Shown here one piece after another: positions 5,916-9,113 of a DNA stretch of 10,851 bases; positions within the stretch are counted from its first letter, which is position 1; every line of letters starts with the position of its first letter. The stretch covers positions 1 to 10,851 of the forward strand of contig JAWCFL010000053.1 in NCBI GenBank assembly GCA_038858525.1, written 5' to 3'. The stretch is from Candidatus Jordarchaeales archaeon (GTDB lineage Archaea; Asgardarchaeota; Jordiarchaeia; Jordiarchaeales; Freyrarchaeaceae). The translations under genes and the position numbers were made by a program. Below the pieces are notes generated by a model that saw nothing but the letters and a program-made list of their open reading frames with translations, searched no databases and was not told where the DNA came from.

Positions 5916-7562
5916 CTACATGTTTTTCCTTCTTTTAAGTGAAGCTTCTATGAAGGCTTTATAGACCGGGCTAGGTTTGTCCGGCCTACTTTTGAACTCC
6001 GGGTGGAACTGCACACCGACGAGCCAACCTTCCTCGAGCTCTATAGCGTTTATTATTTTGCCTGTTGCATCGTAAGCTGAAACTCTTAGCCCGGCATTCT
6101 CGGCCTTTCTGGCGTAATCTGGCATTATGTGGTACCTGTGTCTAAAGCGTTCGACGACGACATCTTGCTTGTAAGCATCCCATAGCTTACTGCCCCTAAC
6201 TATGTGAACTTCATGCCCGCCTAGGCGCATTGTTCCACCCTTATCCTTAAAGTTTCTTTGTTCAGGTAGGAGGTCAACTACAGGGTAGGGAGTATCTGGA
6301 TCGACCTCTGAGCTGTTGGCAACCTTCATTCCTAGGACGACTCTACAGAACGCTATGAAAAGTATCTGGCCCCCGAAGCATATTCCAAGGTATGGCAACT
6401 TTCTCTCTATGGCGTATTCTGCCGCAAGGATCATTCCTTCAACTCCTCTGACCCCGAAACCAGGGGTCAAGAGAACGCCATCAAACGAGTCGAGGATCTC
6501 CAATTTTCCGGGGTCCTCTTCGAAAGTGGATGTGTCTATCCATTCTATGTGGGGCCTCACTCCAAAGGCGGCTGCAGCATGCCTTATTGCCTCGTTAATG
6601 CTTATGTAGCTGTCCACTATTTGCGTGTACTTTCCGGGCATGGCTATTCTAACGGTTCCCGTCGCGTTCTCGTAAAGCGAAACCAGCTTTCTCCATCCTT
6701 CTAAGTCAGGGGACCTTGAGGGGAGAGATAGGATGTTGCAGAGGTAGTCTCCCAACTTTTGTTCTTCGAAAAGCAGAGGAAGCTTGTACACGACTTCGAG
6801 GTCTGGGTTTGATATTACGGCTTCGGGCGGCACGTTGCAGTAGAGGCTGAGTTTCCTCTTAATGTCATCAGACAAAGGCTCCTCGGACCTGCACACTATG
6901 ACATCCGGCTGAAGACCCATCCCCTGAAGTGTTCTGACACTGTGCTGGGTAGGCTTCGACTTTTGCTGCTGGACGGTCTCGAGGAAGGGGACATATGTTA
7001 CGTGTACTAGGGCAGTGTTTCCCTTCCCCTCCTCCAGCCTGAACTGCCTTATGGCCTCTAGGTAAGGCATCGCTTCTATGTCACCAACTGTCCCCCCGAC
7101 TTCTATGAGAAGAATGTCGGGCTTCTTTTTCTCGGCCACTGTTCTTATTCGTCTCTTGATCTCGTCGGTTATGTGGGGGATTATCTGGATTGTCTTGCCG
7201 AGGAATTCCCCACGTCTCTCTTGAAGGATTACCGTCAAGTAGACTTGGCCTGAAGTTATGTTTTGTTCTGGTGAAATAACCTTGCCCAAGAAGCGCTCAT
7301 ATGTGCCGAAATCCTGGTCTATTTCGGATATGGTGAGCTTAAATCCCTCAACTGGCTTAAACTCCCAGACCTCCTCGGTTATGTAAACTTCTCCGTGCTC
7401 TACTGGGTTAAGAGTACCTGGATCAACGTTAAGGTAAGGATCGATCTTGATCACGTCGACGTCGTAGTTTCTAAACTGGAAAAGTTTGCCTATGGAAGCT
7501 GTCGTAACGCCTTTCCCTATGCCCGACATTACTCCCCCAGTGACCATAATGTACTTCGTCAT
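5916..7562 (-). CDS. pyrG: CTP synthase, 548 aa
   Basis: [52 protein letters not shown], the glutaminase nucleophile GICFG and QFHPEF. GGAGG lies upstream of the ATG. Confidence 0.97.
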
Positions 7563-7623: not shown

Positions 7624-7771
7624 TTTGTCGCTACACCTTCTTAAACACTTTCATCTGCAGGAAATAGCGGAGCGAAATTGGAGCTCAGAATCCTTTTAAG
7701 TCAAAAGTAGGAAGATCTTAATGATGAAAAGAGGAACGGAAAAATAGGCCTCCTGCGGAGGAGAGGTTTCC

Positions 7772-7840
7772 GTTGCGAATGATGACTACGACGGTCTTCC
7801 GAGCTACGGCTGTGAGGAGCTAAAAATGAGGACTGACAAC
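7772..7840 (+). ncRNA. Candidate C/D-box 2'-O-methylation guide sRNA (sRNA-A)
   Basis: C box AUGAUGA 7779-7785, guide 7786-7798, D' CCGA 7799-7802, GC-UACG-GC hairpin, C' UGUGA 7811-7815, D box CUGA 7833-7836, and flanking GUUG/CAAC. The D' guide is complementary to the conserved LSU rRNA segment AGACCGUCGUG (sequence recalled from memory). Confidence 0.75.
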
Positions 7841-7854
7841 TTAAGAGGGAGAGC

Positions 7855-7923
7855 GGTGGGGGCGTCATTCAAATGCCTTCTCGTCACAGCATCAGACTCT
7901 CTTTTAAATCATCGCCACCCACC
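7855..7923 (-). ncRNA. Candidate C/D-box 2'-O-methylation guide sRNA (sRNA-B), double guide
   Basis: Terminal stem GGUGGG(U)GGCG/CGCCCCCACC, variant C box (AUGAUUU 7912-7906 or GCGAUGA 7915-7909), D' CUGA 7895-7892, C' UGUGA 7888-7884 and D AUGA 7868-7865. The guides pair with ACUCUCUU and CAAAUGCCUU, two neighbouring LSU rRNA segments (from memory). AAAAAA-TATTTAG at 7959-7947 predicts a start near 7923. Confidence 0.78.
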
Positions 7924-8093
7924 ATGAATAATTCGCGTGGTTACAGCTAAATATTTTTTGAGATTAACGTGAAACAACAAGACTCCTATTTTTTCTTTGA
8001 GAAGTTTAGGCTTGTTGGGAGGCGAACCATTTTTAAGGTTGCTGGTTGTTTTTGAGTTGGAATTATAACTAATAACTGTGAAGGGTGGTCTTG

Positions 8094-9113
8094 TTGGCGT
8101 GTTACATTGTTGTGGGAGGATTTTTTGGTGATGAGGGCAAGGGTAAAATTGTGTCTTACTTGGCCTTGAAGGACAGGGTTGCCGTGGCTGCTAGGGGTGG
8201 TTGTGGGACCAACGCGGGGCACACCGTCGAGTTTGGTGGTCGGAAGTTTAAGCTTAGACAGATTCCGAGCGGCTTCGTCTTTGAGGGGGCGCGCGTCCTT
8301 ATAGGGGCGGGAGTCCTTGTAGATCCGAGAATATTCTTTGAGGAGGTCAACGCTACTGGCGTTGAGAGGAGAGTTGGTGTGGATTATAACTGCGCGGTAA
8401 TAGAGCAAAGGCATATAGAGCAGGATAGGGGTTCCAGTTACCTTTCAGGAAAAATTGGGAGTACTGGCACTGGTTGTGGCCCATGTAATGCTGAGAGAGC
8501 TATGAGGACAGTTAAACTGGCTAGGGATGTTGAGGAATTGAAGCCTTATCTTGCGGATGTCTCCTTTGAGGTTAATGAAGCTATCGATAAGGGGGAAAAC
8601 GTCATAATAGAGGGGACTCAGGGAACTTTCCTGTCGCTTTATCATGGCACCTATCCCTACGTGACGAGTAAGGATACCACGGCTTCGCAGGCATGCGCCG
8701 ACGTTGGTGTTGGACCAACCAAGATAGACGAAGTTCTAGTCGTCTTCAAGGCTTACGTCACGAGAGTTGGTGGAGGACCGTTGCCGGGAGAGTTAAGCGA
8801 GGAGGAAGCAGCTAAGAGAGGATGGCTTGAGGTGGCGACGGTTACCGGAAGGAAGAGGAGGGCTGCACCATTCAACTTCGAGCTAGCTGAAAAAGCCGTG
8901 AGGCTGAACGGTGCCACACAGATAGCTATAACGAAGCTTGACGTGGTTTACCCTGAGTGCAGAGGGGCAACAAGCTTTAGCGAGCTTCCAAGAAGCGCCG
9001 TTGAGTTCATAGAGCAAGTGGAGAGCCGCCTTAAGAAGCCTGTGACGATAATAGGAACAGGAGCTGATGCGAAAGAGGTAATAGACAGGAGAAGGGAGCT
9101 TGGTCTAGTCTAG
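8094..9113 (+). CDS. purA: Adenylosuccinate synthetase, short archaeal type, ~339 aa
   Basis: GDEGKGK, NAGHT, IGSTGTGCGP, EGTQG...GTYPYVTS, TVTGRKRR and TKLDV. The start is probably TTG 8094 (GGGTGG upstream), with GTG 8085 and TTG 8091 as alternatives. Confidence 0.97.
   Translation: MACYIVVGGFFGDEGKGKIVSYLALKDRVAVAARGGCGTNAGHTVEFGGRKFKLRQIPSGFVFEGARVLIGAGVLVDPRIFFEEVNATGVERRVGVDYNCAVIEQRHIEQDRGSSYLSGKIGSTGTGCGPCNAERAMRTVKLARDVEELKPYLADVSFEVNEAIDKGENVIIEGTQGTFLSLYHGTYPYVTSKDTTASQACADVGVGPTKIDEVLVVFKAYVTRVGGGPLPGELSEEEAAKRGWLEVATVTGRKRRAAPFNFELAEKAVRLNGATQIAITKLDVVYPECRGATSFSELPRSAVEFIEQVESRLKKPVTIIGTGADAKEVIDRRRELGLV

Follow-up and report, generated by a model that had tools for sequence, protein, structure and literature searches.

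The window analyzed here, 10,851 nucleotides of DNA from an Asgard archaeon, very likely contains on its minus strand (7923-7855) a separately transcribed gene encoding an archaeal box C/D sRNA of 69 nt that would operate within a standard double-guide sRNP. In all likelihood the element is a genuine C/D sRNA guiding Am1938 of 23S rRNA (E. coli numbering), and we lean slightly toward the reading that its D' guide also methylates U1923. The sRNA is a previously unannotated member of a guide family known from Sulfolobus and Ignicoccus and introduces no new mechanism; since catalogues already list this guide as Sac-sR125 and IHOsR109, it is not as novel as a first-pass annotation of this DNA had implied. 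Its transcription, its assembly into an RNP and the methylation of its targets are what we infer from sequence.

Results

Architecture of the sRNA and its locus

The sRNA occupies part of a 520-nt gap between pyrG (CTP synthase, 5916-7562, minus strand) and purA (adenylosuccinate synthetase, 8085-9113, plus strand), and is laid out in the order stem, box C, D' guide, D', loop, C', D guide, box D and stem (Table 1). The first-pass annotation had placed a box C/D sRNA on the minus strand, and the stem, boxes and guides it described are all present in the sequence. The terminal stem is formed by 10 bp with a single bulged U, and the predicted fold of the whole RNA (-24.6 kcal/mol, z = -4.24) was equalled in stability by none of 200 shuffled sequences. 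The residues needed for a K-turn, U2, G3 and A4 of box C together with G3 and A4 of box D, are kept. A terminal stem, two sheared G.A pairs and the box C uridine are the three requirements described for L7Ae (PMC7994747), and all are found in the sRNA; the D and D' spacers of 12 and 10 nt lie within the archaeal guide lengths of 10-12 nt given by the same source, the D' spacer at the bottom of that range.

The K-loop originally proposed survives in part, as the CUGA box D' stands while the "UGC-UGUGA" parse gives way to a box C' of GUGACGA following a four-nucleotide UGCU loop. We prefer this parse because the D spacer then takes the canonical length of 12 nt and because GUGACGA, unlike the loop, does not vary within the genus. 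An A/T box corresponding to the TATA-like element of the first-pass annotation is equally placed in all five distinct sequences of the family set described below, and presumably acts as the promoter.

Rfam holds few lineage-specific archaeal sRNA families, and a cmscan of the window at E values up to 10 returned no model at the sRNA locus. An open reading frame at 7701-7868 (minus strand, 55 aa) was considered as coding sequence and rejected, since box D supplies its ATG and no more than 14 nt of the sRNA fall within it; it runs antisense through the partner sRNA described below and looks spurious. So does a frame at 7986-8414 (minus strand, 142 aa), which is antisense to purA where the two overlap and is without a match in Pfam.

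Table 1. Features of the sRNA, its convergent partner and the f15 pyrG insert; strand is given for features of the window.
Feature	Position	Strand	Basis or remark
TATA-like A/T-rich putative promoter box AAAAAATATTTA	7948..7959	minus	24-36 nt upstream of first stem base; read from sequence
Terminal stem, 5' half GGUGGGUGGCG	7913..7923	minus	pairs with 7864-7855 in minimum-free-energy fold
Box C AUGAUUU, variant (consensus RUGAUGA)	7906..7912	minus	sequence and homologues
D' guide AAAAGAGAGU, 10-nt spacer	7896..7905	minus	pairs with 23S ACUCUCUU; predicted target U1923 (E. coli)
Box D' CUGA	7892..7895	minus	read from sequence
K-loop spacer UGCU	7888..7891	minus	read from sequence; varies among homologues
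Box C' GUGACGA	7881..7887	minus	6/7 match to RUGAUGA
D guide GAAGGCAUUUGA, 12-nt spacer	7869..7880	minus	pairs with 23S CAAAUGCCUU; predicted target A1938 (E. coli)
Box D AUGA, variant (consensus CUGA)	7865..7868	minus	sequence and homologues
Terminal stem, 3' half CGCCCCCACC	7855..7864	minus	pairs with 7923-7913
Convergent partner box C/D sRNA (AUGAUGA...CCGA...GUGAGGA...CUGA)	~7772..7840	plus	read from sequence; ends 14 nt from sRNA 3' end
f15 pyrG insert	L081:1971-2001; also L082, L083, L084		genomes G042, G036, G026, G043

Conservation within the genus and family

A BLAST search of 40 relatives recovered the sRNA in all three other genomes of the genus (G001, G002 and G003; 89-91% identity) and in one from the family's other genus (G004; 79%), and it is unchanged in four further assemblies of the same species. 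The window and G001-G004 constitute the five distinct sequences on which conservation was assessed. Box D is AUGA in every member of the family and box C is AUGAUUU in four of the five, G003 having AUGACUU, while the inner boxes are constant throughout the genus (CUGA for D', GUGACGA for C') and read CAGA and AUGGUGA, respectively, in G004. The D guide, AAGGCAUUUGA, is fixed in the family and recurs in many sRNAs of the Thermoproteota, and the D'-C' loop is different in each of the five sequences (4-8 nt), as expected if it is unconstrained. The terminal stem is maintained among homologues with changes from G-C to G.U and a different sequence in G004, and stems of differing sequence also flank the boxes of homologues from other lineages.

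The D' guide core AAGAGAG is present in four of the five sequences. Its duplex with the rRNA is reduced to 7 bp in G002, G003 and G004, where position 1 is unpaired, and G001 carries a C.U mismatch adjoining the target nucleotide that leaves only shorter runs. The short spacer, the duplex of 7-8 bp and the one mismatched relative render the function of D' less certain than that of D.

Strict covariation between the outer boxes

In the non-canonical stem of a C/D K-turn, the U.U pair is followed by a Watson-Crick pair between box C position 6 and box D position 1. The sRNA has U-A here, which had been called compensatory-looking on first inspection, and comparison across homologues bears this out as strict covariation. 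Among 30 distinct homologues the combination is U-A in 14, G-C in 16 and mixed in none, a count that tests only whether box C position 6 follows, as the search pattern restricted box D position 1 to A or C. Box C was located through its RUGA motif and the flanking stem and not through position 6. The U-A pair is held by the window's family, by f15 (a second family of the phylum), by SCGC AAA471-B05 and by metagenome-assembled genomes (MAGs) of Sulfolobales and Desulfurococcales, and the G-C pair by Nitrososphaeria, Ignisphaera, two other families of the phylum and others.

Two adjacent predicted targets in 23S rRNA

The assembly (63 contigs, 92.7% complete) includes a 16S gene; as its own 23S gene was not found in it, targets were read from the 23S sequences of the congeneric G002 and of the family relative G004, both of which read GACTCTCTTAAGGTAGCCAAATGCCTTGCC. 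Two other CAAATGCCTT sites in the genome, tried as candidate 23S, are not rRNA. In these congeneric and family sequences the H69-H71 target reads GACUCUCUUAAGGUAGCCAAAUGCCUUG, that is, the eukaryote/crenarchaeote type on which the original prediction depended, and not the bacterial/Thermococcales type. Both target strings, CTCTCTTAAGG and CAAATGCCTTG, are kept in the 23S of the other intron-free relatives that were read (L001, L005, L007 and L008), and in L002, L006, L009 and L010 CAAATGCCTTG is kept with other sequence at the D' target.

Those last four loci (23S of G011, G026, G008 and G021) have unrelated sequence directly 5' of AAGGTAGCCAAATGCC, where other relatives read ...ACTCTCTT, and at least three of them are over-long 23S genes of 3.3-3.9 kb. 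An rRNA intron at the junction of H69 and H70 is the probable explanation, and the insertion point would fall precisely within the D' target of the sRNA family.

Each guide was searched against the G002 23S and the host's own 16S with Watson-Crick pairing required through the fifth guide nucleotide. Each has a single match, of 8 bp at position 2049 of the G002 23S for D' and of 10 bp at position 2064 for D, and both duplexes span guide position 5. The two sites, ACUCUCUU and CAAAUGCCUU, are thus matched at exactly the lengths first reported and lie 15 nt apart, and direct alignment to rrlH agrees with the assignment of their targets to U1923 and A1938 in E. coli numbering. The latter corresponds, as the third A of GCCAAAUGCC, to yeast A2281, where snR13 guides the formation of Am2281 (PMC4174444).

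Shuffled guides equalled the observed match length anywhere in the rRNAs in 3.7% of cases for D' and 0.34% for D. The suggestion that two neighboring sites are unlikely to arise by chance is upheld by the paired test, in which 1 of 5000 shuffled guide pairs matched two sites within 50 nt; 0.76% of shuffled D' guides matched within 55 nt of the D target. A strict full-architecture scan of the whole genome yielded two candidates, of which only the sRNA at 7923-7855 has rRNA matches, and no matches arose against reversed or antisense rRNA controls. A half-unit scan (a C'-like box, 11-13 nt and NUGA, with at least 10 bp to rRNA) gave 18 matches to real rRNA against 9-15 with reversed or antisense rRNA and so has no discriminating power. 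It follows that the D guide match alone is unconvincing and that architecture and conservation carry the case; the half-unit scan is equally silent on how frequent AUGA D boxes are in the genome. Neither guide matches at 7 bp or more among the 11 tRNA genes that could be parsed from aragorn output, a weak negative, and the window itself has no tRNA.

Synteny and a convergent partner

The purA-pyrG gap holds the sRNA in genomes of the same genus and in four genomes of f15, whose pyrG is 70-73% identical to that of the window. The f15 sRNA is composed of AUGAUUG, a 12-nt D' guide, CUGA, GUGAUGA, CAAGGCAUUUGG and AUGA, and its D guide matches 23S at 12 of 12 positions. Sharing of both the gap and the neighboring partner supports orthology of the sRNA within the phylum.

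The partner is a second box C/D sRNA on the plus strand, converging on the first (Table 1). GTCAG, the antisense of its box D, is conserved downstream of every homologue in the genus, and its f15 counterpart lies at L081:1625-1698 on the minus strand, such that the tail-to-tail pair is conserved in the genus and in f15. The f15 partner has boxes AUGAUUA/AUGA and a related D' guide (AACGACGGUCUC versus CUACGACGGUCUU). Possible terminator T-runs of each sRNA sit inside the other gene, and the primary transcripts therefore probably overlap. On the plus strand just upstream of the partner's box C, positions 7720-7777 contain a second AAUGAUGA (7720-7727) followed by a nested hairpin, AACGGAAA ... 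CCUCC UGCG GAGG ... UUUCCGUU, which might be a leader or a third small RNA, or might belong to a longer form of the partner.

A separate observation concerns pyrG in f15. In all four genomes an insert of 31-32 nt separates the ..IDP(Y) codons from those of LNVDPGT and throws the gene out of frame, while the pyrG of the window is uninterrupted at this point. This insert folds into a hairpin of 9 bp, bulged by 3 nt where the 5' cut is predicted and showing a single G.U-compatible change. We regard it as a candidate mini-intron of the bulge-helix-bulge type within a protein-coding gene.

Protein machinery of the host

Adjacent genes for fibrillarin (PF01269, 2.7e-97) and Nop5 (PF01798, 3.0e-66) are located on contig C17, and the genome encodes two members of the L7Ae family (PF01248, 7.3e-30 and 1.6e-21). 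It also has Ras-family GTPase genes, with six strong matches, and a ubiquitin operon. The public title of the family relative's contig that bears the sRNA (JAPDJY010000036.1; L037, G004:C16) is 'Thermoproteota archaeon', a label that may be outdated.

A wider guide family

The string formed by the end of C', the D guide and box D occurs at 41 loci in a scan of 185,579 species genomes, roughly half of them bacterial and seemingly random; the archaeal remainder are C/D-shaped RNAs from Sulfolobales, Desulfurococcales, Ignisphaera, Nitrososphaeria and others. A looser pattern applied to 400 genomes of the phylum matched 21, the window's included. Among A/T-rich members of the phylum, L092 and L093 (G153 and G156) have AUGAUGA, AAAGGCAUUUGG and CUGA or AUGA, with no recognizable upstream box C/D'; the matches may be due to chance or may mark single-guide 'half' sRNAs that use this guide.

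Two members of the family are RNA-seq-verified C/D box sRNAs, Sac-sR125 of S. acidocaldarius and IHOsR109 of I. hospitalis (Dennis et al. 2015, PMC4644070, Additional file 1). They share with the window sRNA the layout of C, D' guide, D', C', D guide and D, and a D guide core, AAGGCAUUUG, beside box D whose fifth nucleotide falls on the third A of CAAAUGCC, which is A1938; in both, the second guide is likewise aimed at the neighboring H68-H69 region. They differ in their outer boxes, which are of the G-C type (AUGAAGA/CAGA and GUGAAGA/CUGA) and not the U-A type of AUGAUUU/AUGA, and in their D' guides, AUUACCCCCGAAC and GUACUCCCGGAG, which pair further 5' than the 10-nt AAAAGAGAGU directed to U1923 (the pairing of the IHOsR109 D' guide was read by eye against the G002 23S, not that of Ignicoccus). 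Their hosts, moreover, belong to a different phylum from the Asgard host of the window.

Closer in their boxes are unannotated homologues in MAGs of Sulfolobales and Desulfurococcales, in SCGC AAA471-B05 and in f15 (L036, L042, L050, L039, L066, L034 and L081-L084), which have the D guide and AUGAUUx/AUGA boxes as in the window, but D' spacers of 12 nt with other sequences (AUACCUCCGGAA, AUGCUUCCGGCA) where the window has 10 nt. The D' guides differ by lineage yet point into H68-H69, as judged by eye on the 23S of relatives and not on each lineage's own. In Nitrososphaeria, for instance, the D' guide AGAGUUAUA is complementary to the loop of H69; guides of the CCGGGAG type, from Ignicoccus and Sulfolobales, have their pairing sites further 5'.

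Discussion

The features described above can be assembled into a conventional mechanism. Boxes C and D (AUGAUUU/AUGA) would form a K-turn above the 10-bp terminal stem, and D' and C' (CUGA/GUGACGA) a K-loop, each predicted to retain the tandem sheared G.A pairs and the box C uridine, with U-A in place of the usual G-C adjoining the U.U pair of the outer motif. L7Ae would bind both the K-turn and the K-loop, after which Nop5 and fibrillarin would join. Pairing of the D guide with CAAAUGCCUU (H70/H71) should place fibrillarin at the A opposite the fifth guide nucleotide, A1938, while the D' guide probably pairs with ACUCUCUU on the 3' strand of H69, 15 nt upstream, where it would methylate U1923. 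Simultaneous pairing with two adjacent segments of 23S may in addition aid local folding.

The principal question is whether the D' arm directs methylation. There is a substantial chance, which we put a little below that of an active D' guide, that only the D guide is active and that the D' spacer is decaying, structural or a pairing-only 'chaperone' arm, leaving U1923 unmethylated. The 10-nt spacer is 2 nt under the 12 nt of the Sulfolobales and f15 homologues, its duplex is just 7-8 bp and A-U-rich, the mismatch in G001 adjoins the target, and across the wider family D' guides aim at different nucleotides, which marks the arm as evolutionarily fluid; Dennis et al. (PMC4644070) also describe double guides in which one arm pairs and does not methylate. 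Set against this, AAGAGAG persists in four of five homologues despite the scrambled loop beside it, the sole rRNA match of the D' guide falls 15 nt from the D target (reached within 55 nt by 0.76% of shuffles), and guides of 10 nt are inside the reported archaeal range (PMC7994747).

Two readings would deny the element its standing as a free guide RNA. It lies about 290 nt upstream of pyrG in the same orientation, the linkage to pyrG is kept in two families, and L7Ae is described as binding K-turns in mRNA leaders (PMC5539422), so that the K-turn might act in cis within the pyrG 5' leader, perhaps as a regulatory element bound by L7Ae. We consider this very improbable, given that the element has its own conserved TATA-like box, a complete C-D'-C'-D layout and two rRNA-complementary spacers, that its guide is common to homologues in Sulfolobales and Nitrososphaeria (linkage to pyrG having been read within the phylum), and that in this genus a convergent sRNA gene intervenes between it and pyrG; co-transcription with pyrG would in any case be compatible with processing into a guide RNA. 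Less probable still, to the point of being negligible, is a chance intergenic resemblance or a portion of the 55-aa frame at 7701-7868, with no functional RNA at all. The silence of Rfam at the locus and the overlap of that frame with the 3' stem speak for it, but conservation of 79-91% has the character of RNA, with fixed boxes and guide and with loop indels that are not multiples of three, the ATG of the frame is box D itself with 14 nt of the element covered, and the covariation, synteny and shuffle statistics all speak against chance.

A double-guide sRNA of this kind fits published observations on archaea, in which H68-H71 is a hotspot of methylation, roughly half of the sRNAs are double guides whose two sites fall within 100 nt of each other, and guides are seen both to drift and to converge (PMC4644070). 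Support for common descent between phyla, as against convergence on a conserved target, is confined to the shared module, the shared box variant and the direction of the second guide to a neighboring region. Yeast snR13 belongs to the same class of guide RNP and, by alignment of GCCAAAUGCC, shares the target nucleotide. It guides 25S Am2280 and Am2281 in H70/H71, A2281 being the third A after m5C2278 (PMC4174444), and differs from the window sRNA as a much longer eukaryotic snoRNA with one guide for two adjacent A residues. Common descent of the two is unsupported at the level of sequence, as no Rfam snoRNA model matches the locus at E values up to 10.

We also entertain, as an unlikely though consequential scenario, that the D guide and the U-A K-turn variant have been kept as one ancient gene since before the split of Asgard archaea and Thermoproteota, a gene that within Asgard would have retained even its purA-pyrG address and convergent partner, and that would be the archaeal ancestor of the snR13/U15-type Am2281 snoRNA. 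If this were true, the sRNA would join a small number of guide RNAs whose history can be followed from archaea into eukaryotes.

At the level of the organism, the element adds an unannotated guide RNA to an Asgard archaeon, a group whose sRNA repertoire is hardly described. The natural covariation between G-C and U-A at a K-turn pair should be useful to sRNA gene finders, which usually insist on CUGA. Finally, the D guide leads us to expect RNA-guided formation, in this lineage too, of the Am known from yeast 25S A2281 in the region of bridge B3 and H70-H71.
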